A DNA stretch of 46,484 nucleotides from a bacterium (GTDB lineage: Bacteria > Hydrothermota > 32-111). Numbering within the stretch: the stretch's first letter is position 1; each line of letters opens with the position of its first letter. The position numbers and the translations under genes are program-made. This document shows positions 13,554 to 42,928 of this stretch, one piece after another. The stretch lies in assembly GCA_050239825.1 (NCBI GenBank), contig JBFXGO010000015.1, forward strand, positions 1 through 46,484, given 5' to 3'. Under the pieces are notes generated by a model, which did not search any database, was not told the origin of the DNA, and worked only from the letters and a program-made list of their open reading frames with translations.

Positions 13554-13889
13554 GGGGGCGAAATTGGTCTCGACAGGGAGAGCCGTTGTGCAGGGGAAGC
13601 ATGCCGAGATTGCTGGGGTCTCGTAAAACACCGGCAAAAAAACAAACGGCGAAAATCTCGCAATCGCTGCTTAATGCAGCAGGGTTTACCGCTTCTTGTC
13701 AGGAGTTTCGGATAAACCCTCATTAACCTGACTGCTGGCGCGCTCTGCCGCGAAGCGCGCACTAAGATTAGCGGCAAAACTCTCTTCAAGTTGCACTGCG
13801 CGCGGAGAGAGTAAACAGGCAGTGCTAAGCATGTAGAAGGACTGCTCCACTCTCTTTGGACGCGGGTTCAACTCCCGCCGCCTCCACCA
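13554..13889 (+). ncRNA. ssrA: tmRNA, tag (A)GENLAIAA
   Basis: 5' GGGGGCG pairs with 3' CGCCTCC-ACCA and includes the G3:U wobble; T-arm GCGGG-TTCAACT-CCCGC; tag ORF 13648-13674 ends ALA-like IAA-stop. Confidence 0.96.
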
Positions 13890-13894
13890 TCTAT

Positions 13895-14107
13895 AGGGAC
13901 GGTGGTTGAAATAGTTGCAATTTTTAAGTCTGATCATTCAAATCATCTCTATTAATGCTGATTTTAAGCGATGCTGCTGTTTTTTCCGTGCTCACTTTTA
14001 AATTTTTTATTGTCAAATTATAATTGGTCCATTAATCATACAATGTGCCTGTTAATAATATATCCAATGTGATTTTTGTCACTTCAACTATTTCAACCAC
14101 CGTCCCT
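13895..14107. mobile_element. MITE-like non-coding element with perfect 23-bp terminal inverted repeats
   Basis: AGGGACGGTGGTTGAAATAGTTG (13895-13917) and its exact reverse complement (14085-14107); AT-rich interior. Confidence 0.65.
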
Positions 14108-21955: not shown

Positions 21956-23143
21956 ATGAAAAACAAACTCAAGGGAAATGTATTTCTTCTATCAATGGTT
22001 TCGCTCTTTACAGACACTTCTTCGCACATGATCTATCCGCTTCTTCCGGATTTTCTTGAAAAGATAGGAGCAAGCAAAACAATAATAGGAATAATTGAAG
22101 GAATCGCTGAAGCGGTTGCCTCACTTCTTCGCTCCGTTTTCGGAACTTTATCCGATAAGATGAAAAAGAGAAAGGAGTTTGTATTCTGGGGCTATGCTCT
22201 CTCTGCAATCACGAAACCTTTTCTCTTCATAGCTAATTCATGGATTATAGTTTTGCTTGTCAGATTTTCAGACAGGATAGGCAAGGCTGTGAGAACTCCT
22301 CCCCGCGACGCAATACTCTCAACATCCGTTGAGTCATCGAAACAGGGCACGGCATTCGGTTTTAACAGGGCTATGGACCGTCTCGGCGCAATCTGGGGTC
22401 CTATTCTTGCTTTCATAATTCTTGCTCTTTTCACTGATAAAGAAAGAGGCATGAGATATGTATTTTTGCTCTCATTGATTCCCGCATTAATAGCTTTAAT
22501 TTTTATTCCATTTGTGAAAGAGACCGGGGAGTTCATAAAAAAACAGAAAGAGATGAAGTATGCGGGTCTTAAATCAAAGAGGTTCATTCTCTTTTTGACC
22601 GCATGCATTGTCTTTTCATTGGGCAACTCTTCAAATTCATTTTTGCTTCTGAAGGCAAAAGAGACAGGGCTCACAAACATTGCTTTGATACCTTTGCTTT
22701 GGATAGTGTACAATATATCATCATCTTTCTTCTCAATAGTTCTCGGCCGGCTGTCAGACAAGATCGGCAGAACAAAAATCATCGCATTCTCTTTCCTCTT
22801 CTACGGCATTCTGTATGTGGGATTTGCATTTGCAGATAAACTTTACATGATATGGATTTTGTTCTTCCTATACGGAATCTACTATGGGCTTTCGGAAGGA
22901 ATATACAGAGCTTACATAGCGCAGATTGTTGAACCGGACAACAGGGGAACGGCATTTGGAATTTTCAATACGGGTATAGGACTGGTTCTTCTCCCTGCAT
23001 CAGTAATCACCGGAGTTGTGTGGGACAAATGGGGAAGCGTCTGGGCATTCAACCTCTGCGCAGTATTCAGCTTCATCGCCCTCATCATATTCGGAGTTCA
23101 TCTGTTACTGGAGCGAAGAAATCGCTTGATGAAGCGGTCATGA
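21956..23143 (+). CDS. MFS transporter
   Basis: 12 TM helices; GTLSDKMKKRK and GRLSDKIGR (motif A); RIGKAVRTPPRDA. Confidence 0.92.
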   Translation: MKNKLKGNVFLLSMVSLFTDTSSHMIYPLLPDFLEKIGASKTIIGIIEGIAEAVASLLRSVFGTLSDKMKKRKEFVFWGYALSAITKPFLFIANSWIIVLLVRFSDRIGKAVRTPPRDAILSTSVESSKQGTAFGFNRAMDRLGAIWGPILAFIILALFTDKERGMRYVFLLSLIPALIALIFIPFVKETGEFIKKQKEMKYAGLKSKRFILFLTACIVFSLGNSSNSFLLLKAKETGLTNIALIPLLWIVYNISSSFFSIVLGRLSDKIGRTKIIAFSFLFYGILYVGFAFADKLYMIWILFFLYGIYYGLSEGIYRAYIAQIVEPDNRGTAFGIFNTGIGLVLLPASVITGVVWDKWGSVWAFNLCAVFSFIALIIFGVHLLLERRNRLMKRS

Positions 23144-23167
23144 ATCAGCATTAATTCTTTTGCCGCA

Positions 23168-24614
23168 GTCATTTTGAACGCCTCTATTCAATGTTCTCCT
23201 GTGAAGAATCTGTCATTCCTGTCATACAGAACTCCGCCCCGCTTATCTTTATAGTGAAGTATCTATCAGCATTTGACCAGTGATATTGGATTAGTGATAT
23301 ATTTTGATTAAGATTTTGTCTTTACAAACAGACTCGAAAATTCCAGTGCAATCATCACTCAATATACTGATGAGTAATATTTATTCTTTTCAGTAATCTT
23401 CACAAAGTTCTGGTACAACCCGTTCTTTTCTATCATGGAGTCGCAGACTCCATTACACCCAAGCCAATGTGGGGACATTCCTTCGGTGTGTCCCCACTGC
23501 AACAATCAATTAATTAACTTATTGAAAGAGAAAGCTACAAGTCGGCGAGGACGCTCCGCACAGACGCCCATCAAGTGGTTTGGGGACATTCCTACGGTGT
23601 GTCCCCACAACATCCCATCTTGATAAAGCGGCGAAGCGAAGTGTGTGAGCCGACGCTACGCTATTCATCAGCCCCCTTATATTTCTTGATTAGCGACCAG
23701 TGATTTTGGACTAAGGATAGCCTTTGAGTAAGACTTTGTCTTTACATTAATCTTCACAAAGTTCTGGTGCAACCCGTTCTTTTCTATCATGGAGTCGCAG
23801 ACTCCATTACACCCAAGCCAATGTGGGGACATTCCTTCGGTGTGTCCCCACTGCAACAATCAATTAATTAACTTATTGAAAGAGAAAGCTACAAATCGGC
23901 GAGGACGCTCCGCGCAGACGCCCATCAAGTGGTTGACCCCTTGCTCCGCTATCCCATCTTGATAAAGCGGCGAAGCGAAGTGTGTGAGCCGACGCTACAC
24001 CCGCCATCAGCCCCCCAAAATCAGCTCTGAGCCGTGAGCCATGTGCCTTGAGCTTAATACGTGGAGCTGATTAAATAACTTGCCTTTACAATTCCGAGGA
24101 AAAATTCCAGTGCATCTCCGCACTGCTATTCAATGTTTTTCCGAGGACAATCAAGTCCATTCTTATTGAAAGTGAAAGCTACAAGTCGGCGAGGACGCTC
24201 CGCGCAGACGCCCATCAAGTGGTTGACCCCTTGCTACGCTATCCCATCTTGATAAAGCGGCGAAGCGAAGTGTGTGAGCCGACGCTACACCCGCCATCAG
24301 CCCCCCAAGCATTTCTTGACTCGTGACCAGAGATGTTGGACTAGTGATAACCTTATCCCATCTTGATTAAGCGGCGAAGCGGAGTGTGCGAGCCGACGCT
24401 TCGCTATTCATCAGCCCCCTAAAAACCAGCTTTTTGAAACCACCGTCCCTGAGAAAAAAACTATAAACCATACCCCGTCCCCAGTGTTAAGTTCAATAAA
24501 GAAGGGGGGTTAAAAGATCCTGATTTTATTTGCATTTTACTGGTTTACTCGCTCACCAGTTTACCATTCCGTCTTTCTGAACACTTCTTATCACTGCTCT
24601 CGCGTGAAGAATCT
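23168..24614. repeat. Mosaic palindromic repeat block L (non-coding)
   Basis: Long-hairpin units at 23518-23676, 23872-24016, 24162-24306 and 24355-24419 (partial); GGGGACA/TGTCCCC hairpins near 23469, 23581 and 23823; 21-nt boxes; heptamer tracts. Confidence 0.92.
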
Positions 24615-24615
24615 A

Positions 24616-25407
24616 TCAGCTATTTTGACTTACAAGCGCACTGACAATTTTTTTTGCATCAATAATCTTATTCTTCTCATCTTCGTCAAATAAAAACGGA
24701 CCTAATTGGTCTGCGAACTTTTTCAATTCAGAATCTGTGAATTCATTGAATCTTTTTAGAAGCACTTCACACCATACCTCTTTATATCCATATCCTTTAA
24801 GCACTTTTTTATCAGGTTCAGTTTTCTTTGACAGCAGATAAATGATATCATAGATGTGTCTTCCCCTCGGCTTTTTGTGAATAGCGTCAATTTTATCAGC
24901 CATTAAAATGCTTTCATCAAGGCAGTTTGCAATAAATGTCTCCCCGTAACCGTTTATTACTCTTTGAGAATTATTTATTTTCCATTCCGGCACTGCGGTT
25001 TCAAATTTTATCACAATTACTCCTCTTCTGCTTCCTGACAATCCATACGCTTCTTCAATGTCAGTGAAATGGATTCCTGCAGTAAATAGATTCTCTCTCT
25101 TATCAAAATCTAACTTAGTTTTGATATTATATTTTTGAAGTTCGCCTGCTATCCTGTTGATTGAAACTTGAAAAGCATCCATATTCAATTTTACTGAATA
25201 AAAATCAAGGTCCTCTGAAAATCTCTTCGTTAAATTGGCAAGGCGCAGATATGTGCCTCCTGTAAAACTGAAAGTATTGCTGTTTCTATCGGAAAACAAA
25301 ATTTTCAAAATAAGAATCTGAAGATACTCTCTTAAAATGCCTCTCGTCTTCTCTTGAGGCATCCCCCTCTCTTTTGCATAATCAACAAGGTTTTCATAGG
25401 TCAGCAT
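24616..25407 (-). CDS. abiEii: AbiEii-family nucleotidyltransferase toxin (type IV TA)
   Basis: FTGGTYLR...RFSEDLDF, KFE, ADKIDA, RHIYDI; ATG 25407 follows GGAGG. Confidence 0.9.
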   Translation of the reverse strand: MLTYENLVDYAKERGMPQEKTRGILREYLQILILKILFSDRNSNTFSFTGGTYLRLANLTKRFSEDLDFYSVKLNMDAFQVSINRIAGELQKYNIKTKLDFDKRENLFTAGIHFTDIEEAYGLSGSRRGVIVIKFETAVPEWKINNSQRVINGYGETFIANCLDESILMADKIDAIHKKPRGRHIYDIIYLLSKKTEPDKKVLKGYGYKEVWCEVLLKRFNEFTDSELKKFADQLGPFLFDEDEKNKIIDAKKIVSALVSQNS

Positions 25408-25984
25408 ATAACCCTCCAATATTGACTTTCATTAAATCAGCATATTTTTTTAATGATTTTCTTGATAGTCCTTTCATCACTTTTGAATCTGCCCTGTCGA
25501 TTTCGGAGAGCTTGTTCAGATATAAAAAATCAACAACTGCCTTTTCCGGCTCTGCAATGTGAATTTCAAATCCTTTCTCTCTGAAAAGATAATAACCTGT
25601 GAAATACTCCTTTTTGACGGTTCTGTATGAGAAAGCTCCATAATCGTTCTTGAAAAAGCGTGTCGCTTTTGTTGTAACAGATGTGACAGAGATTGCAATT
25701 TCAGGAATGATTCCATGCATTGACAAAACTGTTTCCAAAGAGATATATGAAGGACTGTATAGTTTGTTTGCCACATACATATCGGGAATGATTGTTTTTT
25801 CAGGATATGAAATCTGGTAAAGCCCTCTCTTCAATCTGATGATTTTCTTTGATTCTATCCAATTGTAAACCAATCTTGCAATGCTCTCTTCCTTCTCTTT
25901 TGGAAACAGCTTCATAAGGTCTTCGATTGAGAAGATATTTAGCTTGCTCTCAACTGCAAATTTCAAAAGTTCATTGTATTTCAT
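25394..25984 (-). CDS. abiEi: AbiEi-like antitoxin / regulator
   Basis: RLKRGLY, PSYISLE, SVTT, IAEPEKAVVDFLY; overlaps abiEii. Confidence 0.85.
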   Translation of the reverse strand: MKYNELLKFAVESKLNIFSIEDLMKLFPKEKEESIARLVYNWIESKKIIRLKRGLYQISYPEKTIIPDMYVANKLYSPSYISLETVLSMHGIIPEIAISVTSVTTKATRFFKNDYGAFSYRTVKKEYFTGYYLFREKGFEIHIAEPEKAVVDFLYLNKLSEIDRADSKVMKGLSRKSLKKYADLMKVNIGGLYADL

Positions 25985-26047
25985 TTCAGTTAATCCTATA
26001 TTTATTCTATTTACTGAAATGATATACCGATTTCACAAAATTGTCAA
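25981..26047 (-). promoter_or_regulatory. abiE promoter with an inverted-repeat operator
   Basis: Minus strand: TTGACA (26047-42), 17 nt, TATCAT (26024-19). Perfect 10-bp IR TCATTTCAGT (25981-90) / ACTGAAATGA (26013-22). Confidence 0.7.
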
Positions 26048-26096
26048 CCCCCCACTTTAATCTCCTGATTCCGGACTTTCGATTAGCAATTTCTTC

Positions 26097-27105
26097 GTCA
26101 TCTTGAACTCCGCAGTAGTTATCTCTACTGTGAAGTATCTGTCAGCATTTCGACCAATGATTTTGGATTAGTGATATATTTTTTCCCGTCATACTGAACT
26201 CCGCAGTAGTTATCTCTATAGTGAAGTATCTATCAGCATTTGACCAGTGATATTGGATTAGTGATATATTTTGATTAAGATTTTGTCTTTACAAACAGAC
26301 TCGAAAATTCCAGCGCAGTCACCACTCAATATACTGCTGATTAATATTTTGTCTTTTCAGTAATCTTCACAAAGTTCTGGTGCAACCCGTTTTTTCTATC
26401 ATGGACGCTCGCGTCCATTACACCCAAGCCAATGTGGGGACATTCCTTCGGTGTGTCCCCACTGCAACAATCAATTAATTAACTTATTGATACTCGAAAG
26501 CTCAAAGTCGGCGAGGACGCTCCGCGCAGACGCCCATCAAGTGGTTGACCCCTCGCTTGGCTATCCCATCTTGATAAAGCGGCGAAGCGAAGTGTGTGAG
26601 GCGACGCTACGCCTGCCATCAGCCAGTAAATCAGCCTTGAGCCTTGAGCCATGTGCCATGAGCATAATACGGGGAGCTGATTAATATTTTGTCTTTTCAA
26701 TTCCGAATGAGAAGCCTGTCCACAGCGCTCGTCTTTTCAATGCTTCTCATGAGGACAATCAATTAATTAACTTATTGAAAGTGAAAGCTCAAAGTCGGCG
26801 AGGACGCTCCGCGAAGACGCCCATCAAGTGGGCGACCCCTTGTTACGCTAACCCATCTTGATTAAGCGGCGAAGCGGAGTGTGTGAGCCGACGCTTCGCT
26901 ATTCATCAGCCCCCCAAATCAGCCCTGAGCCTTGAGCCATGTGCCATGAGCATAATACGGGGAGCTGATTAATATTTTGTCTTTACAATTCCGAATGAGC
27001 GCTACGCTATTCAGCCGCCCCCCAAAAACCCAGCTTTTTGAAACCACCGTCCCTAGGAAGTATCGTCTTGAACGGCTCTTATCGATGTTTTCGTTTGAAG
27101 GTTCC
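26097..27105. repeat. Mosaic palindromic repeat block R (direct-repeat counterpart of block L)
   Basis: 26188-26624 resembles 23221-23676; long-hairpin units at 26483-26624 and 26771-26915; shares the 25-bp CCAGCTTTTTGAAACCACCGTCCCT (27030-54) with 24426-50. Confidence 0.92.
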
Positions 27106-27135
27106 GTCAGCATTTTGACTAGTGATTTTGGACTA

Positions 27136-27262
27136 GTGACCCGTGATGTTTTTTTCGCAACTATTTTTTACCCTTGCATTTTGTATGTTTCGTGATAAAA
27201 TACCAAAAAAGGGCGAACGGAAGGAGATTTTGATGGATAAGAAACTCAATAAAAACCATCTG
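27136..27262 (+). promoter_or_regulatory. Portable promoter/RBS module B, copy 1
   Basis: TTGCAT (27174-79), 16 nt including TGn, TAAAAT (27196-201), AAGGAG, ATG 27233; near-identical to copy 2. Confidence 0.75.
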
Positions 27263-27393
27263 AAAAACTTGATGAAACTAATACACCATACCCATTCTGA
27301 ACGCCTCTATGCAATTCTCTATTGTGAAGAATCTATCAACAATGAAACAAAAACAACACAGTCCCTCAAATCTTAATTAACAAAAGGAATTTT

Positions 27394-28405
27394 ATGAGTG
27401 GTTTAGTACCTCGGAATTCACAAATAATTATTTACAACACAGAAGACGGAAGAGTCAAGCTTGATGTGAGGTTCGATGGAGATACCGTCTGGTTGACTCA
27501 GCAACTGCTTGCCGAGTTGTTTGATACGACAAAACAAAACATTAGTCTTCACCTGAAAAATACTTTTAAGGAAGGAGAGTTGGTTGAAAAATCAGTTGTC
27601 AAGGAATTCTTGACTACTGCAGCGGATGGAAAACAATATAACATCAAATACTATAACTTAGATGCCATTATTTCAGTAGGTTACAGAGTTAATTCCGCCC
27701 GTGCAACACAGTTTAGAATATGGGCAACGCAGAGACTAAGAGAGTATATTGTTAAAGGATTTGTTCTGGATGACGAGCGGCTCAAAAATCCCGATTTGCC
27801 GTTTGATTATTTTGAGGAACTGACCAGAAGAATTCAGGATATCCGCACTTCAGAGAAGAGGTTTTACCGTAAGATAACAGAGATTTACTCACTCAGCGTG
27901 GATTACGACCCGACAAGTGAAATGAGCATCAATTTTTTCAAAACAGTGCAAAACAAAGTTCATTGGGCTATAAACGGTAAAACAGCCGCTGAAATAATCT
28001 CCGAAAGAGCCGACAGCAAGAAATAGAATATGGGTCTGACAAACTGCGCGTGGAAGTGTTCCAAGAAAGAGTGATGTGACAGTTGCTAAAAACTATTTAA
28101 CTGAAAGCGAATTAACAGCTCTTAATAATTTAGTGGAACAATACTTGATTTTTGCAGAAGGCAAGGCAATGCGCAGAATTCCGATGAAAATGAAGGACTG
28201 GGTGGAAAAATTGAACGGTTTTTTAAAATTGAATGACAGAAATATTTTGGAAGATGCCGGGAAAATATCACATGAATTGGCTGTGGAAATGGCAGAGAAG
28301 GAGTATGACAAATTCAACAAAAAGCGTCTAAAGAAACAAATCAATATTGAAAACGATTTTGACAAAGCAATTAAGATGATAGAGAAAAAGAAGAAGAAAA
28401 AATAG
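27394..28405 (+). pseudogene. rhuM: RhuM-family (virulence_RhuM) DNA-binding protein, disrupted
   Basis: VWLTQ, YNLDAIISVGYRVNS, ATQFRIWAT, IRTSEKRFYRK, VAKNYL. In-frame TAG at 28024-26 plus a +1 frameshift near 28047. Confidence 0.85.
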
Positions 28406-29502: not shown

Positions 29503-29793
29503 ATCACTGAGATTGAAAAACATTAGAATTTAAAAATAAAAAGTATAAACCATACTCCGTCCCCAGCATAAGTGTAATTAAAAATACCCCTTAGGTTATG
29601 AAATCCTGAAGAATCTATCACATCTTTACCAGCCTACCAGCTCACCAGCGTACTAGTCCACCAATACGCCACCGTCCCTGAAATTGTCATCGTGAACGCC
29701 TCTATACTTATGACTACAGTGAAGGATCTATCAACCCAGTTGTCGCGAGCGAAGCAATCTCTATGCTTCTCTTCGGATAATGGATCGGCGACC

Positions 29794-31162: not shown

Positions 31163-31759
31163 ATGGCTAATCAAACACTGATAGATTATATTATTCATGG
31201 ACGGGAAGAAAGAAATCTAGAATATAAAGAGTCAATAGATTGGAATACCTTTGAAAATAAAGAAAGGATTATCAAAGCTTGTTTAGCTATGGCTAATTTG
31301 CAGGATGGAGGGATTATCGTTCTCGGTATGAAAGAAGTGAGTAAAGATGTTTGGGAGCCCCAAGGAATGACTTCAGATCATTTTGATACATATTCTCAAG
31401 ATGATGTATCAGAGAAAGTCAATGAGTATGCAGATCCATCTATTCAGATTAAACTTTCTAAAATTCAACACGATAATAAAAATTTCATTGTAATTGAAGT
31501 TGCTGAGTTTAGAGAAATTCCTATTATTTGCAGAAAAACTGGAACTACTTTAAAAAAAGGTGGCATTTATATACGTCCAAAATCTAAAAATGAAAGTGTA
31601 ATAGTTCCAAATGAATCTGAACTGCGAGAGATTTTAGATAAAGCTGTTGAGATAAAACTTGAAAAGCTCAGAATTAGATGCTCCATGATTGCAGAGACAA
31701 AAGAGGTTGATAAGTTATCAAAAGAAAAATATAACGACGAAGTAAAGGATTTATTATGA
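31163..31759 (+). CDS. Schlafen/AlbA_2-domain protein
   Basis: EERNLEYKE, AMANLQDGGIIVLG, FIVIEV, IYIR. Confidence 0.85.
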   Translation: MANQTLIDYIIHGREERNLEYKESIDWNTFENKERIIKACLAMANLQDGGIIVLGMKEVSKDVWEPQGMTSDHFDTYSQDDVSEKVNEYADPSIQIKLSKIQHDNKNFIVIEVAEFREIPIICRKTGTTLKKGGIYIRPKSKNESVIVPNESELREILDKAVEIKLEKLRIRCSMIAETKEVDKLSKEKYNDEVKDLL

Positions 31760-32469
31760 ATGAAATACTTGAAGAAATAAAAAAAGGACCTTATTGGCAG
31801 TTTAGATTCTATCCAGCTGAAATTAAGAATTCAGAAAAAAATGTAATACCCTCTTTAAAAGAATTAAATGAACTAATTGAAACATCTCAAGTAAGATTGC
31901 GCGGATGGTATTTCCCACACATAAATCATGAGAAATTTAAACCAAAAGAAAACTATTATGAAATTGATACAAAATATCTGGAAACAAAAGAGTTTTGGAG
32001 ATTTTATCAAAGCGGACAGTTTATAATGTTTACAAGTATTTATGAAGACGTCTTAGTAAAACAAAAAAGAATACCATATTGGCCACCATTTAATTCAAAT
32101 AATCCAAAAGGATATGTAGAATTTTTAATTTCTATTTATCTCATTACAGAATTTTATTTATTTACGAAAAGAATTTTAGATAAAGTTCCTCAAATTCAGG
32201 AATTAAACATAGAATTGAGCATAAATAACATAGAAGGGTATGAATTGTTTTCAGGAGAATTTAAAAGAGAGCTTTTTAACAGTTATACAAGTTCTTCTCA
32301 AATTATTAGAATTCCACTTAAAACTTTGAAACGAGAGACATTAATAAGTAGTTACAGTAAAATTGCTTTGGATGATGTTAAATATATATTTGAAAGATTC
32401 AATTGGCTAGAACAACCGACACTGGTCTTTGAAGAAGAACAGGCAAAATTGTTAGAGAGAAGACTATAG
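31756..32469 (+). CDS. Hypothetical protein, translationally coupled to the AlbA_2 gene
   Basis: ATGA overlap; 237-aa ORF with LRGWYFPH and [11 protein letters not shown]. Confidence 0.75.
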
Positions 32470-32477
32470 GAGAATCT

Positions 32478-35400
32478 ATGACTGAAAATTCAGTTTTTAT
32501 TACTAATAGTCAAACAAAACAGCTAAAGAAAAGATTAATTGATTTGATTAAAAGCAGTTCAGAACTAAAATTTTTGGTGGGCTTTTTCTATTATTCCGGA
32601 ATTAGAGAATTATATGAAGGGCTTAAAGAAAATTCTTCTATTTGTATGAAGGTCCTTGTTGGTTTATCGGTTTCTAATGATGCCTTTGGACTTGTAGAAT
32701 ATGGTGAAAATGTTAAAGAACTAACACTTGGAGAAAGAGTACAAAGGTTTTATCAATCGATTGAAAATTCAGTAAATTCTGATGATTTTGATACAAAGGA
32801 ATTTTATGAACAAATTAAGTTTTTTATTGAGATGATACAAGATGGGAAATTGATTATTAGAAGGACAAAAGAACCAAATCACTCAAAACTATATTTTTTT
32901 AATTTAACAAATAGTTTGGTCAAGCCCAAATTGTTTATTACGGGAAGTTCAAATCTTACAAAAGCTGGGCTTTCTACACAGAGAGAATTTAATGTAGAGC
33001 TTAGCGATTTTGGTACGATTGAAGCAGAGTTATATTTTAATTCTCTCTGGGATGAGTCAGACAAAATTACAGAGACGGAAAAATATAAAAAGGATTTAAT
33101 AAGAATTTTGCAGAGAAAAACTCTTATAACTGAAATTACTCCTTATGAAGCCTATGCAACCATAATAAAGAATTATTTAGATGTTTTTACTCCAAAAGAT
33201 AGTGATGGTAGAGTTCATAATTTATTAGAAAGCGCTGGCTACAAACCATATACTTATCAAATAGATGCAGTGAGTCAAGCTTTAGAAGTTATCAAAGAAT
33301 ATAATGGTGTAATACTAGCTGATGTTGTTGGATTGGGTAAAACAGTTATCGCCTGTGCGATAGCGAATCTCTTAAATGAGCGTAGAGGATTAATTCTATG
33401 TCCTCCAGGATTAATGGGTGATAATAGTGAATCAAGTGGATGGAGAAAATATACGAAGGAATTTGATTTGCACGGTTGGCAAGTTCGCTCTATTGGCGAT
33501 TTGGAAAATACATGGGCCTATATAAAAGAACAGGATGGATATAATACTGTAATCATTGATGAAGCACATAGATTTAGAAATGAAGATACAGAAAGTTATG
33601 AAACACTATTAAATATCTGTAAGGACAGAAAGGTAATACTTCTGACGGCTACTCCATTCAATAATTCTCCTGCAGATATTTTTGCTTTACTTAAACTGTT
33701 TGTGGTACCCGGGAAATCAAAACTGACTCTTGAAGATGATTTGGATATTACATTTAGAATCTATCAGAATGTTTTTGATAAGCTTTCCTTTATTAATAAG
33801 AATCATAATTCCTCTAAAGAAATAAACAAGAAGAAATCCGAGTCGATTTATAAAGCGTTGTTTGATGAAAACTCAATAGATTTATCAAAAGTAAGAAAAA
33901 AATCGCATTATATTTCCAAGCAAATTAGGCAAGTGATTGAACCTGTTTTGATTCGCAGAAACAGAAAAGATTTAAAAGAAGATCCATTCTATAAAAAGGA
34001 AAAAATAGAGTTATCCATTCTTAAAGATCCTGAAGAAATCTTTTTCAAATTATCCAAAGAGCAATCGGAGTTTTATGACAAAGTAATAAATGAATATTTT
34101 TGCGAGGGAGGAATGTTCAAGGGTGCCATCTACAGACCGTTCTTTTATGAGAAAGAGTTAAAAAAGAGTATTGGCAATAAAAGGAAAAAAGAGAAAAATG
34201 GTTCTGATGATAACAGAGACATGCAGATGCAAGTCAATCTATATGATTTCATGAGAAGATTGCTTGTAAAGAGGTTTGAAAGCTCTTTTGGTGCGTTTGA
34301 AAAGAGTATTAGTAATTTTGAGAAAATACATCTTTCAATTTTGGAATTCATAATAAATTCGGATTTCAAATATATACTGGATAGACAATTCATTGAGAAA
34401 ATACATGAATTAGATTACGAACAAATCTCTATTGAGTTAGTAAAATACATAGAAAAAATTAAAGATAAGAAAGAAATCGTTAATCCTAAAAAGTATAGAG
34501 TATATAATGTAAAGGAATTTTATAGAAAAGAAGAATTTATAAAAGATATTCAAAATGACATATGCTTATTCCAAATAATAAAAAAAGAATTAAAGCAAAT
34601 GGAATTGGTAAACAATGATCCTAAAGTTACAGAAATTTACAATGAGATTGAAAGATTGATTAAGAATAACAAAAATGCCAAAATTGTATTATTTACTGAG
34701 TACATTGATACCGCAAAGCACATTGAAGCAAAGTTTAAGAGCGAAGGAAACAACACTCATTATGTTGTTAAAGATGAACTAAACAAATCAAAAGTTGAAG
34801 AGATAATCAAAAATTTTGATGCATCCTCAAAAATTCAAGAAAATAATTATAATATTCTTATCACAACAGATAAAATGTCTGAAGGATTCAATTTAAATAG
34901 AGCTTTTGCAGTTATAAATTATGATATTCCATGGAATCCAACGCGAGTAATACAAAGGGTAGGCAGAATAAATAGAATAGGAAAGAAAGTCTTTGATTAT
35001 CTTTATATCTATAATATATTCCCTTCAGAAAGGGGTGCAGACATAATTAAGAGCAGACAGATAGCTCAAAATAAAATGTACATGATTCACAACACTCTTG
35101 GTGAAGACTCTAAAATATTTGATGTGGATGAAGTTCCTGAAGCATCAAAACTTTATAAAAAAATTCTGCAGAACCCAAATGAAATTGAAGATGCAGGCTT
35201 TTATACTAAATTAAGGCGAGAGTATGCGGAAATGAAAGAGGATGATATCCTAGTTGAGAAAATCAAGAATATGCCTATTCGTATTAAAGTTGCGAAAAAA
35301 TATGATAACTATTATTTGGATACATTTATTAGGAAGGGAAAAGGTTTCTTCATTAGAAGCGTTGAGGGTGGAAAGAACGGTGTTGTCGATAGTGCTATGG

Positions 35401-35825
35401 AAGATATAATTCATAGAGTTAAATGTGAAAAAGATGAGCATAGTTATGAGATAAGCGAGAAATTTTGGGAAAATTATGAAAACACAAAGAATCCCAAAAA
35501 GAAAACTGAAGAAGTTCCAGAAATGAAAAAGATTGAGACCGAAGCGTATAACAATTTAAAATCAATTTTAGAGATTGACAGTGAGAAACTTTTACCTCTA
35601 AAAGAAGATTTAAGAAAATTGCTTCGAAATATAGAAGAATACAAAACATTGCCATTATATTCTTTAAGAAGAATAAGAAACATCGTAATTACAGATGATA
35701 ATGATAAACTTGCTAAAGAAATAAAAACTGTACTTGATAGAATCAACTTAGGTTCGTCGTTATCTGTTGACAATTCTATAAAAAAAGAAGTTATAATAGC
35801 TGTGGAGAATAGAAATGATATCTGA
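32478..35825 (+). CDS. PLD-nuclease / SNF2-family helicase fusion (restriction-associated)
   Basis: HSKLYFF...GSSNLT (PLD-like), [45 protein letters not shown]. Confidence 0.9.
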
Positions 35826-38800
35826 TCAAAACATTAAAAACGCTCTTGAAGTTCTTATTCAAAATTATTCTGACACAAATTTGTATAAGTTTCTTGAATT
35901 AAAGACTGAGCATATTAGAAAGAAGAAAAATGATTTCACGAGCATTGTTGATAAAGACTTTCTACAATCATTAAATCAGATTGCTGAAATTGAACTGGAA
36001 AATGAGAAAAAAATGTTCGTTATAACCGGAGAGATGAAAAAAGAGTTAAACGAGAGAACGGGAAAGAAAAAACAATATGATGTAGCTAAAGACATCCTAA
36101 AAAGTAACCATAGTTATGATTGCGGCATTTTCGTTTTTTATGACGGAGATGGGAATTTCAGATTTAGTTTAATATTTAAAGAATATTTAGGGGTAAAAGT
36201 AGATGTAAGCACATTTAAAAGATACACATACTATGTCTGTAAGGAATTTACCAATAAAACTTATTTGCAACGAATAGGCAACAGCGATTTCTCCTCATTT
36301 GCCAAGATTAAAGAGGCGTTCTCGGTTGAAAAGGTCACAAAAGAATTTTATCAGGATATTGCCAACTGGTATTTTTGGGCTGTTTCGCATTGTCAATTCC
36401 CCAAAGATGTAGAAGCAGAAGAAAACGGCCGCAATATTGCAGTTATTCGCCTCATCACCAGAATTATTTTTATTTGGTTTATGCGAGAGCGAGGACTCAT
36501 TAATAAAAGCTTGTTTGAAAAACAGCAAATACAAGATATTTTAAAAAATTTAAACAATGACGAATCAAGTTATTACACAGCGATATTGCAAAATTTATTT
36601 TTTGCGACGTTAAGCACTAAAAAAGGAGAAAGGCAGTTTGGTAGCAAGACAAAAGGCCACAGAGGTTATAACCCAGATTTTGGCAATCAATATGTTTTCC
36701 GCTATCAGGAAATGTTTAAAAATTCTGGAAATATAAAAGATTATTTTGGCGATATTCCTTTTTTAAATGGAGGCCTTTTTGAATGTTTGGATGATAAGAA
36801 GAACGGAATTATCATTGACGGATTTTCGCGAACAAAGAAAAACCAACCGAAAGTACCCAATTTGCTATTTTGGGGTGCAGAAGAAACAATTGATTTGAAC
36901 AAAACCTATGGTACAAAAAGTAAAACATACAAAGTACGAGGACTCTTAAATATTTTGTCGTCTTTTAATTTCACGATTGACGAAAACTCGCCTGATGACG
37001 CCGATATAGCACTTGATCCGGAGCTTTTGGGAAGAGTATTTGAAAATCTACTGGCCAGCTTTAATCCTGAAACATCCACCACCGCTCGTAAAGCCACAGG
37101 CAGTTATTACACTCCGCGCGAAATTGTGGATTATATGGTCACTGAATCCTTGAAAGCTTATTTTCAAACGCACTTGAACAATATTGAAAAAATTGATGAA
37201 AAATTGGAGAAGCTTTTTTCCAACGAATTTTCAGTAAATCCTTTTAATGCTAACCAATCTAAAAAATTGGTTAAGCTAATTGAAAACGTCAAAATTGTTG
37301 ATCCAGCTGTTGGCTCCGGTGCTTTTCCTATGGGAGCTTTAAATAAGCTGGTGTTTATACTAAACAAAATTGATCCGGGAAATAAATTATGGAAAGAAGC
37401 GCAGTTAAAGGCGGTTGATGCCATACCCGATCCAAGCGCTAGAAGAATCGCAAAAGAGCGGATTGAAGAGTTTTTTGAAGGTAAAAATGCGGACTATGGT
37501 CGAAAACTATATTTGATTCAACGTTGTATTTACGGTGTAGATATTCAGCAAATTGCCGTGGAAATAGCCAAACTTCGTTTTTTTATCTCACTTTTAGTAG
37601 ATGAAAAGATTGATAAGGAAAAAGATAATTGGGGAATAGAACCGTTACCAAATCTTGATTTCAAAATCATGCAGGGGAATAGCTTGATTTCCGAATTTTT
37701 GGGTATTGATTTTGATGATGGCAAGTATAAACAAGAACAATCGGGAATGCTTTTTGATCAGGATGACGATTCACTTATTAAGGAATTTGAGCAAAAGAAA
37801 ATAGATTTTCAAAACGAAGCGGATAAAGATAATAAAATCAAACTTAAGCAAGATGTGGAAGATTTGATGATTCGTATTTTCGAAAATAAGGTCATAAAGC
37901 AAAAAGGTGATTATTTTAGACAATTGAAAGAGATTGAAAAAAAATATTCTATATTACACAATCAAAAACAGCGGGATGAGATTGTGGCACAAGAAAAGCA
38001 AAAACTCTCCAAAAAATCTGGCTTTGACCTGGAAAATATAGAAAAACAATTGCGCGAATTTACCAGCAAAAAGAAAACAAGACCGTTTTTTCCTTGGAAA
38101 CTATATTTTGCGGAGGTGTTCGAAAAAGAGGGATTTGATGTTGTGATTGCTAATCCGCCGTATATAGGAGAGAAAGGACACAAAAATATATTTAAAGAGG
38201 TTAAGAATGGTGGTCAAATTGGCAAATTCTATTTGGGCAAAATGGATTTTTCCTACTTCTTTTTTCATCTTGCTTTAAACCTTGGTAATCCTGAAGCAAA
38301 AATTGCTTTTATCACTACAAATTATTACCCTACTGCACTTGGAGCAAAGAAATTACGCGAGGATTTTAGAAATAGAACTATTTTAGAAAAACTAATTAAT
38401 TTTAATGAATTAAAGATATTTAAGTCTGCTACTGGTCAACACAATATGGTAACGCTTCTTTCTAAAGGACAAGATGCTAATTATTTTACCAAAACATGCA
38501 TAACTAAAAGGACGGGTGAAGCGAATTCCGGAATATTAAACTCAATTGTCAGTTGGCATGATAGTATGACAGAATATTATACAATTAAACAAAATGATTT
38601 ATATGATGGCAAAGAAGATTATATTCGTTTACCCGGTAATTCTATGATTTCAGATGATCCAGTGCAAAATATTTTAGATAAAATAAAAAAACAAGGGGAA
38701 GTTTTGGGTATCATATGTAATGTCAATAATGGTGTTTTTGCGGGTGCTGACAGTTTGAGCCTAAACAAAAAACAAGAATATAATATTCATAATGCTATAG

Positions 38801-39567
38801 AGGGGGAAGGAATATTTGTGTTAACTAACGAGGAAGTTGTTAATAAAAAATTTACTAAAGAAGAACTAAAATTAATTAAGCCGTTGTATAAAAACTCAGA
38901 TATTAAAAAATATTATACTAACTCAAAAAATGAGCTAAACTTAATAAATTTAAGATACACAGATAGACCTAATTTAGAAAGTTATCCTAATTTTGAAAAG
39001 CATTTATTGAAATTTAAAACTTTATTGAGCAAAAGGCCAGAAACTGGCACTTTAGAATCAGCATTTAAAAACGGTTATTGGTATGTTATGTCTACAAGTC
39101 GAAAAGTGGATATGGAACATGCAAAAATTGTATTTCCTCAAAGAAGTTGCGAAAATACCTTTGGGTATAACGAAGATGTGTGGTATGCCATGTCTGATGT
39201 ATTTTTTATTACTGATAAAAAAGAAAATGCTTTAGTAAAGCTGAAATATATTTTATCTATATTAAATTCAACATTGTTTTATATTTGGTTATATTATAGA
39301 GGAAAAAGAAAAGGTGAAACACTTGAATTAACAGGAACACCAGTTTCTGAAATACCAATAAAAACTATTTCAGAAAAGGATCAAAAACCCTTCATCAACC
39401 TCGTTGATCTAATCCTTGCCATCACCAAATCTGCCGACTACCTGCAAAATCCGGACAAGCAGGCGAAAGTGAAAGAATACGAAAAGCAGATTGATGAGCT
39501 GGTTTACAAACTCTATGAGTTGACGCCGGAGGAAATTGAGATTGTGGAAGGTTCCACAAAAAAATAA
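35815..39567 (+). CDS. Type IIG/Eco57I-like N6-adenine DNA methyltransferase with a TaqI_C-like target recognition region
   Basis: [31 protein letters not shown] (motif I), GVDI, IANPPY (motif IV), C-terminal [16 protein letters not shown]. Confidence 0.92.
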
Positions 39568-39584
39568 TGACCAAAGATAAAATG

Positions 39585-40262
39585 GGAACGGTGCTTGACA
39601 TCTTGACTCTTATAAAACGAATTCGGAGAATATAGAAAGGAGGAAAAGAAATGGCAACAGAAATTGTTAAAAGCATTATGGAATTTTTGAAAATAGTTAT
39701 TCCAATGACCATCACAGCATACTTAGGATATTTATACGCTGTAAAGAAAGATAAGGAAGAAAGAAAAAGAAAATATGAAGAAATGCAATTAACTGAATTT
39801 TACTCACCAATATTAGCTTTACGAAGAAAAATATTATCCTATGGTGAAATGCGAGAAGAAGTATATAGTGCGATGGATAAAACATGGAGGAGCAAATGCA
39901 AAATGACAAATATAGAAAATATTGAATATGAGAAAGAATTTAAGGATTATGATAAAGGGATTGTATATCAGAATGATAAATTTAGAAATATAGTATTCCC
40001 ATTATACAATGATATGATAGAAGTATTTTCAAAAAAATATTGGTTAGCCGAACAAGAAACAAGCTTGTATTATAATAAATTAATCAAGTTTCATGAAATG
40101 TGGAGTATATATTTCCAAAAGGCTGTTCCGGGAGAAGCAATGAGTGAAATTGGGATTACGGAAAGCGAATTATTACCATTTTATGAAAATGTTGAAAAGG
40201 TGTTCAATGAACTTAGATTAAGAATATCAAAAAAAGATAGGAACGGTGCTTGACATCTTGAC
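39585..40262 (+). repeat. Perfect 23-bp direct repeats flanking a single gene
   Basis: GGAACGGTGCTTGACATCTTGAC at 39585-39607 and 40240-40262. Confidence 0.92.
39651..40253 (+). CDS. Hypothetical protein with an N-terminal TM helix
   Basis: AGGAGG RBS; hydrophobic IVIPMTITAYLGYLYAV followed by a helical domain; stop codon lies inside the 23-bp repeat. Confidence 0.75.
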   Translation: MATEIVKSIMEFLKIVIPMTITAYLGYLYAVKKDKEERKRKYEEMQLTEFYSPILALRRKILSYGEMREEVYSAMDKTWRSKCKMTNIENIEYEKEFKDYDKGIVYQNDKFRNIVFPLYNDMIEVFSKKYWLAEQETSLYYNKLIKFHEMWSIYFQKAVPGEAMSEIGITESELLPFYENVEKVFNELRLRISKKDRNGA

Positions 40263-40406
40263 AGAAACAAGACGCCATGGGCAGTGTGCCTTGAGCCGTG
40301 GGCAAGATAAAAAGAGTAAGAAGAAACAAAAGAAAAATTATGATAAAAGGAGCCATGTTGACAAAAGAGATTGGGTGGATAGAATTGAAGAAATCAGGAG
40401 GTAGAG
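40263..40406 (+). promoter_or_regulatory. Portable promoter/RBS module A, copy 1
   Basis: Heptamers, A-rich tract, GGAGCCATG-TTGACA (40358-63), 16 nt, TAGAAT (40380-85), AGGAGG. Confidence 0.8.
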
Positions 40407-41522
40407 ATGGCTGTAAATGGTAATAAGAATCAAAGTAAATATAACTTGACAGACGATTTGCTTAAAACCTTTGTTGTAATTATATTAGGTTTTATTCTTT
40501 GGCTTTATCCCTTTTTATTTCCTAAAACAATTTTAATAATTGTTAACGACATTATAAGTCCTATAATATTAAAACTTATCACTATTGGATTTGTAATTCT
40601 TTATTACTTCATTATTCAATTCAAATACGGTAAAAATATAGTTTATGAACTAGCTTTTAAAATAATATTTTTTCCTTTATATATTTTATATAAAATAGTA
40701 GAAATCATGTTTTCAACATTTGATATTATTAATAAAATATTAAATCTACTTCAAAAGCAATTATCTTGGGTTGTTATAGTATTTTTTGTATATGTAGAAT
40801 TTCTTTTAATATTTCATGACTGCAACATTTATCTTTATATAGTTTTTTTAGTTTTCAGTTTATTCATTTTAGTCTGGTTATTTATTTGGCTTATGAATTG
40901 GGTTTTTAAGCCATTTAAGTCAATAGCAAAGCAGATTATGACAATGTTCTTGAAAATATACAATTCTATTGTTGATATTACTCTTAAAAGTAGCAATGGA
41001 GAAAAAAAACTCAATGAGGTTGAAAATTACATAAAAAAACTAGTTGAGTTCAAGGTAAAATTTACACGAATCAGCGTTGAGAGAATGACTGCTATAGCTT
41101 TTGGACTATTCTATTTCTTAAACATCTCATTAATTGTGATTCTTTACGCAATGCTATATTTGTCTTTAAACAAATTATCGATGTTTTTTATCAAAGACAC
41201 ACATTCTTTACCTATTGACTATGTATTGTGTAGCATAACTACGTTACTTGGTAATACTCCTTATAGCCTTGAACTCCTTACAGGAATTTCGAAAACCCTC
41301 ATCCTAACCGAATTATTTGTAGGTATAATGTTAATGATAATATTACTTGCAATTGCATCATTATTAATGAAAGAACATTCGAGGGAAATTCACTCGGATT
41401 TAGAAGCACTTATGCAAAAGAAAATTGAAGAGTTAAATTATAAAAAGAATAACATTATTAAAGAAATATCTACATCTGATGCGAAAGAATTGAATCTTTT
41501 GGAAAAGAAAGAAAAAGAATGA
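40407..41522 (+). CDS. Multi-pass membrane protein with a C-terminal ion-channel-like TM-pore-TM unit
   Basis: Several TM helices; LYAMLY...DYVLCSITTLLG...KTLILTELFVGI resembles Ion_trans_2. Confidence 0.6.
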   Translation: MAVNGNKNQSKYNLTDDLLKTFVVIILGFILWLYPFLFPKTILIIVNDIISPIILKLITIGFVILYYFIIQFKYGKNIVYELAFKIIFFPLYILYKIVEIMFSTFDIINKILNLLQKQLSWVVIVFFVYVEFLLIFHDCNIYLYIVFLVFSLFILVWLFIWLMNWVFKPFKSIAKQIMTMFLKIYNSIVDITLKSSNGEKKLNEVENYIKKLVEFKVKFTRISVERMTAIAFGLFYFLNISLIVILYAMLYLSLNKLSMFFIKDTHSLPIDYVLCSITTLLGNTPYSLELLTGISKTLILTELFVGIMLMIILLAIASLLMKEHSREIHSDLEALMQKKIEELNYKKNNIIKEISTSDAKELNLLEKKEKE

Positions 41523-41627
41523 TTGTATTGAACGGCATTTTTATATGACATGTAATTGTTAGTTTAATACTGAAACGAAAAAGGTAAAAATAATAGAAAT
41601 GATTAATTGGTAAATGAGAAAAAGCAA

Positions 41628-42368
41628 ATGAGAAAAGCAATAGTAAAAGAACCATGTAGGCTTTGTAAAAATAACACAGAATTATGTGAATCACATATTT
41701 TACCTGAATTCATGTATACGGAATTGTATGATGAGAAACATCGATTTGTAGAAATTGATGTCGAAAGAAAGAAAGAGCGATTTGGACAGAAGGGAATTAG
41801 AGAATACCTATTCTGTAAATCGTGTGAAACTTTAATGAGTAAGTATGAGAATTATGCATCCGATGTGTTGAGAAGAAATATTTACTGCAATGCTTCAACT
41901 AAGAAAATGTACAGGGGGAAAGTAATTTATGAAGTATTGGAACTCAATTATAATAAGTTGTTAAAGTATTTTTTAATAGTAGCATACAGGAGCGCTATTT
42001 CAAGTAAAGTATTTTTTCAAAACTGCAAATTGGATAGCTTTAAATTGAATACATTGGAAGTATTAATAAATGATGTCAAAAAAGAAGTACCAAGAAATAA
42101 ATATCCACTAATTGTTATTAAATTAATAAATAGAGTATTTAAAGGAAAAACAGTTTTAAGGGAGCCATCAATATATAATTTACCTAATCATTTAGATAGT
42201 GAATTTTATAGGTTATTCAATGGGAACTTTATTTTTATGCAAGGATTGCAAATAAAAGAATTTAGAAAATATATGAATGATTTCTCTCTGAAAGAGAATG
42301 GGAGTATTCTAATACCAGAATTTGATTCTATAACATCACCCGAGATAAAATCCTTATTTGGAGCATGA
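41628..42368 (+). CDS. HNH-like zinc-binding endonuclease
   Basis: CRLC...ESHILPEF...LFCKSCE pattern. Start is ATG 41628 or TTG 41607. Confidence 0.7.
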   Translation: MRKAIVKEPCRLCKNNTELCESHILPEFMYTELYDEKHRFVEIDVERKKERFGQKGIREYLFCKSCETLMSKYENYASDVLRRNIYCNASTKKMYRGKVIYEVLELNYNKLLKYFLIVAYRSAISSKVFFQNCKLDSFKLNTLEVLINDVKKEVPRNKYPLIVIKLINRVFKGKTVLREPSIYNLPNHLDSEFYRLFNGNFIFMQGLQIKEFRKYMNDFSLKENGSILIPEFDSITSPEIKSLFGA

Positions 42369-42376
42369 GGGCTGAT

Positions 42377-42628
42377 GGGGACGATAGGTTTTGTCAATAC
42401 TTTCAAGCGAGACAGGCGAAGACGCACCGTGAGCCTTGAGCCGTGAGCGAGAAAAGAAAGTTAATGGTTTATAGTTGATGGTTAAGAGTTAACAAGACGC
42501 TGTGAGCTATGTGCCTTGAGCCATGGGCAAGAAAAGACTAAGAAGAAACAAAAGAAAGATTCTGATAAAAGGAGCCATGTTGACAAAATGGAATGGGTGG
42601 ATAGAATAGAGAAAAATAGGAGGTGATT
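42377..42628 (+). repeat. Module A copy 2 (55-bp head, one ~80-bp unit, promoter, RBS)
   Basis: Head GGGGACGATAGG...GCACCGTG (42377-431); TTGACA (42580-85), 16 nt, TAGAAT (42602-07); AGGAGG 42618-23. Confidence 0.88.
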
Positions 42629-42910
42629 ATGGCGGATTATAAGATTGACGGGAAGTATTTAAAGGACAGGCACGGGAGCAAAATCGGAGAGTTTGACAGG
42701 CGTTCGTTTAGAGACAGTCATGGAAGTAAAGTCGGAGAGGTTGACAAAAATTATATCAGAGATTCTCACGGACATAAAATAGCTGAATTGGACGGAAGGT
42801 ATGTCAGGGTTGATGGTAAAAAAGAAACCGATTTAGACCACATTCAAAAAATGATTGATGGTCCCGGCGGCATCTCTCTTGTCGGTTTCTGGGTGTTGTT
42901 TATAAGATAA
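42629..42910 (+). CDS. Small beta-repeat protein (16-aa D..G.K(I/V)(G/A)E.D repeats) with a hydrophobic C-terminus, paralog 1
   Basis: YLKDRHGSKIGEFDRR / SFRDSHGSKVGEVDKN / YIRDSHGHKIAELDGR; strong RBS. Confidence 0.75.
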   Translation: MADYKIDGKYLKDRHGSKIGEFDRRSFRDSHGSKVGEVDKNYIRDSHGHKIAELDGRYVRVDGKKETDLDHIQKMIDGPGGISLVGFWVLFIR

Positions 42911-42928
42911 AAAAAAAAGGAGGAAAAG

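Follow-up and report, generated by a model that had tools for sequence, protein, structure and literature searches.

Mosaic intergenic repeats are known from other bacteria, NIME of Neisseria, BOX of pneumococcus and ERIC among them, and these are modular, hairpin-forming elements in which the relative order of the modules is fixed and the module content is variable. REP and BIME elements, with their REP-associated tyrosine transposases (RAYT or TnpA-REP), are abundant, lineage-specific, clustered intergenic hairpin repeats built on 20-40-bp palindromes, and stand beside the related TIRtrons with their TIRYT enzymes (PMC3733652; PMC6006769). At the scale of single motifs, GCGNAGC heptamers have been described as extraordinarily stable in DNA and less so in RNA (PMC13037366), within a class of d(GCGNAGC) or d(GNA) mini-hairpins (PMC13037366; PMC3201870). 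Here, we analyzed a stretch of 46,484 nt from a bacterium of the Hydrothermota (lineage 32-111; GenBank assembly GCA_050239825.1, contig JBFXGO010000015.1, positions 1 to 46,484 of the forward strand), referred to below as the window. A preliminary description of the window had reported that repeat copies between 23469 and 26915 differ at the N of C-GNA-G motifs, and had read this as a signature of single-stranded DNA folded on both strands. We find that these motifs are parts of mosaic, non-coding hairpin repeats arranged head to tail, whose family is restricted to one genus and makes up a strongly structured and strongly oriented large repeat system in an uncultured phylum.

The central module of the family, the core, is approximately 157 nt long and is found 131-133 times by nhmmer in the 2.1-Mb genome, spread over 33 of its 67 contigs. 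Ninety-nine of these matches are near-full, and 97 of them are unique and were used for the core variability counts. The other modules, designated D3, L, H, X, B, A, R and a small hairpin of 25-27 nt, keep a constant orientation relative to one another and combine freely, in head-to-tail units with a period of around 290-355 nt. All modules together form 85 clusters covering 45,345 bp, or 2.1% of the genome; 47 of these contain at least one core and are called arrays here. The family resembles NIME, BOX and ERIC in its modular, hairpin-forming, intergenic build, its fixed relative order and its variable module content, but it has no sequence relation to them and its arrays are long, holding up to six cores, and run against the neighboring genes. 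The arrays and repeat copies in the window are as follows:

23216..24455, plus strand: repeat array 1, consisting of D3, L, X, A, core, A, L, X, A, core, H, B, core, L, partial core, R
26096..27059, plus strand: repeat array 2, consisting of D3, L, D3, L, X, A, core, H, X, core, H, X, R, with L/D3 pieces running on to 27338
23503..23675, plus strand: core copy 1, its apex replaced by a small hairpin with a TACG loop
23858..24014, plus strand: core copy 2, the reference copy (core column c = 23857 + c)
24149..24304, plus strand: core copy 3
24350..24418, plus strand: partial core comprising just the 3' half (model positions 90-158), in which C-GGA-G is without its pairing partner
26468..26624, plus strand: core copy 4
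26756..26913, plus strand: core copy 5
23470..23497, plus strand: small hairpin with a TTCG loop
23581-23608 (TACG), 23824-23851 (TTCG) and 26435-26462 (TTCG): further copies of the small hairpin
24423..24450, minus strand: R module, standing alone here and identical in type to the terminal inverted repeat flanking a Y1 transposase gene (G000:C5:4330-5109, where G000 is the window's own genome)
27027-27054: second copy of the R module

The preliminary description was right that the repeats do not code for protein, as the longest open reading frame (ORF) in array 1 does not exceed 62 aa and the copy lengths (81, 103, 118, 128, 129, and 145 nt) do not differ by multiples of three. A DNA search of 41 related genomes found the core in three, namely the window's own genome and both other genomes of the genus (G001 and G002), and it was absent from the 38 genomes outside the genus. 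A scan of a genome collection returned nine loci, six in a single WOR-3 metagenome-assembled genome (MAG) and three on contigs of MAGs carrying other labels, while a metagenome scan with an unspecific pattern of two decamers and a variable gap returned at least 116 loci, of which one (L147) fits the core model. In G002, synteny with the window ends at the stop codon of an MFS gene (window position 23133) and no core array follows that gene, which argues that the arrays sit in flexible DNA.

A consensus fold computed with RNAalifold on the 97 copies shows the core to be a long-range hairpin of approximately 100 nt, with helices P1 to P4. Its elements, in core columns and in coordinates of the reference copy, are:

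columns 38-43 / 131-136 (23895-23900 / 23988-23993): helix P1
between P1 and P2: a 4x4 loop with tandem G.A pairs
columns 48-56 / 118-126 (23905-23913 / 23975-23983): helix P2, with a G50.U124 wobble
G57-N58-A59 facing G115-A116-A117 (23914-23916 / 23972-23974): a 3x3 internal loop
between the 3x3 loop and P4: helix P3
columns 67-75 / 97-106 (23924-23932 / 23954-23963): helix P4
columns 76-96 (23933-23953): a C-rich apex

Besides its helices, the core thus keeps several features that are not of Watson-Crick type, namely the tandem G.A pairs, the GNA/GAA 3x3 loop, and the G.U (in DNA G.T) wobble, with the qualification that the 3x3 loop is missing from divergent subfamilies. Covariation was assessed in 26 diverse copies, comprising the five of the window, four others from the same genome (including a divergent subfamily), 16 from G001, G002 and allied contigs, and one from a metagenome. 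In 14 of the 21 predicted pairs, both sides have changed and pairing is kept. Paired cells amount to 94.3% as against 78.2% in shuffles (a level reached by none of 500 shuffles), and double-change cells number 84 as against 24.7; controls in which the pairing was slid are only 21-46% paired. The strongest covarying pair is N53-N121, which reads AU in nine copies, UA in eight, CG in three, GC in one and CA in five of the 26. The evidence supports selection on the core sequence for a single-strand fold, and to this extent the proposal of a folded single strand stands. The further proposal, that mini-hairpins of the d(GCGNAGC) type form on both strands, is not supported, as the pairing is mostly long-range. 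Folding with both DNA and RNA parameters, which had been suggested as a check, recovers the covariation fold as the minimum-energy structure of the plus strand under either set, whereas the minus strand takes a different fold.

On re-reading, all five motif pairs on which the preliminary description was built were exact at all ten coordinates, and the loop-breaking C-ACA-G was confirmed at 23559-63. Placed on the fold, the pairs fall as follows:

23913-17 (cgcag) and 26812-16 (cgaag): columns 56-60, one side of the 3x3 loop, where N58 faces A116
23637-41 (cgaag) and 24380-84 (cggag): columns 119-123, a strand of P2, where N121 pairs with N53
23943-49 (gctccgc) and 24233-39 (gctacgc): minus-strand GCGNAGC of columns 86-92, in the apex
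23655-61 (gctacgc) and 24398-404 (gcttcgc): minus-strand GCGNAGC of columns 137-143, outside the hairpin, with GTAG at a distance of 1 nt from the P1 foot
23480-86 (ccttcgg) and 23591-97 (cctacgg): CC-GNA-GG, which forms the small hairpin's terminal loop

The core consensus holds six sites of the C-GNA-G type, including four full GCGNAGC heptamers (columns 50-56, 86-92, and 137-143 on the minus strand; columns 113-119 on the plus strand). The heptamer at columns 50-56, a minus-strand GCGGAGC that contains N53, had not been listed previously. Heptamers occur at 7.6/kb in arrays as against 0.22/kb outside them, so that 344 of the 802 occurrences in the genome lie in 2.1% of its length. True terminal loops, however, are confined to the core apex (columns 86-92), which may form a real triloop closed by 2 bp, and to the small hairpin; both read C-GNA-G on the minus strand. 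Most of the motifs are no loops at all, and the claimed DNA signature fails when taken alone. Moreover, a single nucleotide is read both as the central base of GNA on the minus strand and as the N of UNCG on the plus strand, and the N pattern therefore cannot separate DNA from RNA. Motif readings of the GNA kind need a covariation check first. Pairing of GCGAAGC (113-119) with GCTNCGC (86-92 or 137-143) was also considered, but it would leave a mismatch in the center, where A116 would face A140 or C/A89.

Across the 97 cores, variability at the N columns is 0.37 at column 58 (C in 61 copies, A in 32, G in three and T in one), 0.47 at column 89 (C in 51, A in 41 and T in five), 0.13 at column 121, 0.06 at column 53, 0.03 at column 140, and 0.00 at column 116. 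Column 140 is thus near-fixed while the neighboring 'G' position (column 141) and closing base (column 142) vary at 0.35 and 0.34. The small hairpin, in 48 copies, has a TTCG loop in 29 and TACG in 19, with three other differences in total. With this hairpin counted in, N is variable at four of eight sites. When seven motif sites in six module consensuses were tested, mean variability was 0.18 at N columns and 0.096 at other columns (rank test p 0.027), and the comparison of N columns with G/A columns gave p 0.053. Columns with a variability of at least 0.1 make up four of seven N columns and 136 of 510 others (Fisher p 0.09), and in the core alone three of six N columns are polymorphic as are 32 of 151 others (p 0.12). 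Within columns 38-136, polymorphism is found in one of 56 Watson-Crick-paired columns and in 11 of 43 others (p 0.0004), and the variable N bases are a subset of this general pattern in which unpaired positions vary. The reported substitution pattern is real in the window and holds in part across the genome, where N is the sole variable loop base at several C-GNA-G sites, but the statistical excess is modest and the larger fold explains it.

The preliminary description had proposed comparing rates at N with those at G and A, and had named two observations that would count against it, namely G and A positions as variable as N and a single-strand RNA with UNCG loops. These are borne out in part. 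In the window's own genome the N means are indeed the higher, but G and A vary in relatives, where columns 114-118 read CTAAG in five of 25 rows and columns 87-91 vary at every position, and a UNCG reading is available on the plus strand. In the small-hairpin loop of relatives, TTC becomes TTT in three copies and TTG in one, and the middle base stays T except in one TACG copy (locus L011, on a contig in a MAG outside the genus). The differences between copies within the genome are few in kind: 35 of 157 core columns are polymorphic, nearly all with two alleles, all four combinations occur in 546 of 595 pairs of variable sites, and mean r2 is 0.019 beyond 5 nt. This near linkage equilibrium indicates a few old differences reshuffled among copies rather than many independent substitutions, most of them two-allele polymorphisms that recombination or gene conversion has redistributed. 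Deamination of cytosine in loops was rejected as a source of the N variation, as the changes are C/A and T/A transversions.

The strand that folds is probably the plus strand of the window. In the 26 diverse copies, wobble cells read G.U on the plus strand in 57 cases and A.C in 14 (19 and 14 when the sites G50.U124 and G46.Y128 are left out), one divergent subfamily has tandem U.G/G.U pairs on the plus strand, and the stem of module H has three wobble positions and one conserved C.A when counted for that strand. Folding energy was rejected as a means of choosing the strand, as the two strands differ little and no z-score for a single copy reaches significance. The polarity of the arrays is strong. 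The plus sense lies on the strand of negative local GC skew in 40 of the 47 arrays (p 1e-6) and in 110 of 126 core matches; arrays between genes that share one direction point against those genes in 15 of 17 cases, and those in convergent or divergent settings follow the skew in 14 of 17. Strand-specific folding has been described in other systems, where the lagging-strand template holds the active strand in IS608 (PMC5027513) and the leading-strand template holds the folding strand of attC sites in chromosomal integrons (PMC5371416). The attC sites of sedentary chromosomal integrons (PMC5371416) resemble the present arrays in having a single folding, working strand and a polar arrangement, and our plus strand would match the leading-strand template if GC skew marks replication; the analogy is drawn for polarity only. 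The units here carry no genes, a single gene pair lying between two arrays, and no link to an integrase was seen, although none was looked for.

A candidate for a strand-specific agent is present in the genome, which has four Y1_Tnp genes, each flanked by its own inverted repeats of 25-36 nt. Their best NCBIfam match is the REP-associated tyrosine transposase, at 56.6-73 bits and under the 80-bit cut-off, and miniature derivatives bounded by Y1 inverted repeats occur in the same genome. One of the terminal repeats, the C5-type repeat that forms module R, abuts core arrays in 12 of its 17 copies. In 63 of the 97 core copies, the minus strand carries GTAG 1 nt 5' of the hairpin foot (P1), and ATAG or TTAG in 32; REP elements have been characterized by GT[AG]G at 0-2 nt 5' of the foot (PMC6006769). 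Based on these features, and at slightly less than even confidence, we favor the reading that the family is a REP/BIME/NIME-like repeat acting at the DNA level, with hairpins kept for a strand-specific process on single-stranded DNA and a RAYT-like Y1 enzyme as its likeliest agent. The repeat would spread and be homogenized as DNA, its hairpins would persist because the single-strand process needs them, the agent would most likely be one of the four RAYT-like Y1 (HUH) transposases, among whose terminal repeats one caps many arrays, and any transcription of the arrays would be incidental. It is the mosaic build, the four RAYT-like genes with their miniatures, the R copies abutting arrays, and the minus-strand GTAG that point to biology at the DNA level.

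Likenesses to REP/BIME and to RAYT relatives flanked by terminal inverted repeats, as described in PMC3733652 and PMC6006769, are the abundant, lineage-specific, intergenic and clustered hairpin repeats, the one-strand tag beside the foot, and the inverted-repeat-flanked Y1 genes with miniature derivatives, one of whose repeats adjoins arrays. Differences from the same descriptions are the composite hairpins of around 100 nt in modular units of around 300 nt, where REP elements are short palindromes, and a P1 of 6 bp followed by the 4x4 loop, where REP elements have a fully paired basal stem of 7-20 nt in a hairpin that is either short or long and bulged. Several further observations weigh against a DNA-level, RAYT-driven repeat. 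None of the four Y1 genes is flanked by a core hairpin, so that none qualifies as a REPtron; the arrays run head to tail on one strand, a layout unusual for REP elements, instead of forming the inverted dimers of BIMEs or REPINs; and the minus strand, which carries the GTAG tag, is not the one favored by wobble. The wobble asymmetry itself comes mainly from two sites (G50.U124 in 25 of 26 copies, G46.Y128 in 13 of 26), the small-hairpin wobble in G001 lies on the opposite strand, and fold energies are only weakly better than those of shuffles (z -0.3 to -2.7). UUCG-type loops, typical of RNA, occur on the plus strand at three different hairpins, the tandem U.G/G.U pairs of one subfamily are likewise typical of RNA, and as RNA the small hairpin gains 2.5 kcal/mol in stability on the plus strand over the minus strand, while as DNA the two are equal. 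Finally, local GC skew tracks local gene direction, and array polarity is therefore not assignable to replication, which excludes replication polarity as a demonstrated property; the only array whose replication side can be deduced (C3:15988-16484, left of dnaA) follows gene direction and not replication.

Several of these points are what would be expected if a structured non-coding RNA were made from the plus strand, with the units as its genes or as co-transcribed portions and N as the free base of UNCG or internal loops, a reading that we regard as plausible but less likely. On this view the hairpins and G.U pairs, together with the sheared G.A and UNCG-type loops, would count as features of RNA. 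It is favored by the near-invariant G.U pair and the alternation of G.U with G-C at the second wobble site, by the tandem U.G/G.U of the divergent subfamily, and by the loops of three hairpins: each of the 48 small hairpins has UUCG or UACG, the mid hairpin of module A has G(UUCG)C on the plus strand, and the apex of the metagenome copy L147 has gC(UUCG)Gc. The small hairpin folds as RNA at -19.5 kcal/mol on the plus strand and -16.9 on the minus strand, z-scores over 40 cores are -2.7 and -1.3, respectively, and polymorphism avoids the helices. UNCG-capped RNA hairpins are indeed similar in that only the N varies on the plus strand, but fold programs prefer a triloop to the UUCG tetraloop for the small hairpin, and a mismatch lies in the stem next to the loop. 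Against the RNA reading, no Rfam family matches 23000-27400 even at E up to 5, the best value (E 0.12) being a chance-level snoRNA match, and the only match in the window that reaches a gathering score is the tmRNA (13554-13889). Promoter-like and terminator-like sites are not in excess over shuffles (sigma-70-like, 11 as against 9.5; terminator-like, 3 as against 3.4), and the only canonical terminator-like hairpin, in module B with a T run after it, is on the minus strand (24125-24108). The plus sense opposes both neighbors in 15 of 17 same-direction contexts, and free shuffling of modules would be unusual for an RNA gene. A bolder form of the RNA reading, which we consider unlikely, takes the ~300-nt units as some 130 tandem genes of a new class of structured non-coding RNA in WOR-3 bacteria, transcribed from the plus strand against their neighbors and binding a dedicated protein; its core would carry the tandem G.A pairs, the GNA/GAA loop, the invariant G.U and the UNCG caps.

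The palindromes could also act as double-stranded features, either as ends of miniature transposons or as protein-binding sites, with changes in the arms reflecting a shared binding specificity. Module A has perfect 13-bp terminal inverted arms with two co-varying alleles, recombinant copies with mismatched arms exist, and the genome does hold miniature elements bounded by Y1 inverted repeats. This explanation is nonetheless improbable, given that a search for a parent insertion sequence bearing the module A or core arms found no full-length element, all inverted pairs being hairpin-sized or formed by neighboring units, that the core arms are not mirror copies and contain conserved asymmetric loops and wobble, and that the orientation bias needs a strand-specific process. 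Least probable, and largely refuted by the covariation and by the variation in relatives, is the view closest to the preliminary description, in which local d(C-GNA-G) or d(GCGNAGC) mini-hairpins on both DNA strands are the functional units and the loop tolerates any N. Four heptamers per core, the share of genomic heptamers inside arrays, the stability described for these heptamers as DNA (PMC13037366), and two true terminal loops that both read C-GNA-G on the minus strand speak for it. On the other side, most instances here are strands of long-range helices or parts of an internal loop: covarying long-range pairs exclude mini-hairpins at columns 50-56, 56-60, 113-119, and 119-123, and N53 and N121 pair together. 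N116 and N140 are fixed while the 'G' position at column 141 varies, G and A vary in relatives, and the internal loop is missing from divergent subfamilies. A genome holding four RAYT-like enzymes and 2% hairpin repeats is a usable system in which to ask how such repeats spread and whether their working form is DNA or RNA.

Some of the other modules deserve mention in their own right. D3 has about 81 matches in the genome, at gene boundaries, and lies in the window at 23167-23274, 24570-24624, 26096-26241, 27290-27344, and 29686-29733. Its orientation is strongly biased, following the local skew 65 to 8 (13 to 3 among isolated copies), opposite to the bias of the cores, and in G002 a D3 copy lies approximately 1 kb past the MFS gene, where the core array is absent. 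The hairpin of module H has a large loop filled by four tandem 7-nt repeats of the NTGAGCC type (24027-24054, 26637-26664, and 26925-26952). TTTACA and CAGTGC, noted by eye only, stand exactly 17 nt apart with differing spacers in modules B and X (24085-24113 and 26288-26316) and in the metagenome copy L147. Small-hairpin copies at G000:C7:59637-59828 and C27:45379 begin directly after a sequence resembling a tRNA T-arm and acceptor, GTTCGAATCCCT, and copies beside such tRNA-like 3' ends are possibly insertions there.

A miniature element of approximately 210 bp (13895-14107) starts 6 nt past the tmRNA gene of the window and is bounded by inverted copies of the terminal repeat of the Y1 gene on contig C14; similar pairs occur on C14, C41, and C47. 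The gene pair between the two arrays is a toxin-antitoxin system:

24616-25419, minus strand: AbiEii
25394-25984, minus strand: AbiEi

Past array 2, the adjacent ORFs 27394-28026 and 28076-28405 match positions 1-147 and 166-250 of the RhuM profile, which looks like a split or frameshifted gene. Further downstream of the arrays, a run of genes resembling a defense island (31163-44563) includes a Schlafen/AlbA_2 gene, a PLD-containing SNF2 helicase of 1115 aa, an Eco57I/MmeI-type methylase of 1250 aa, three ORFs without a Pfam match, and one HNH protein.

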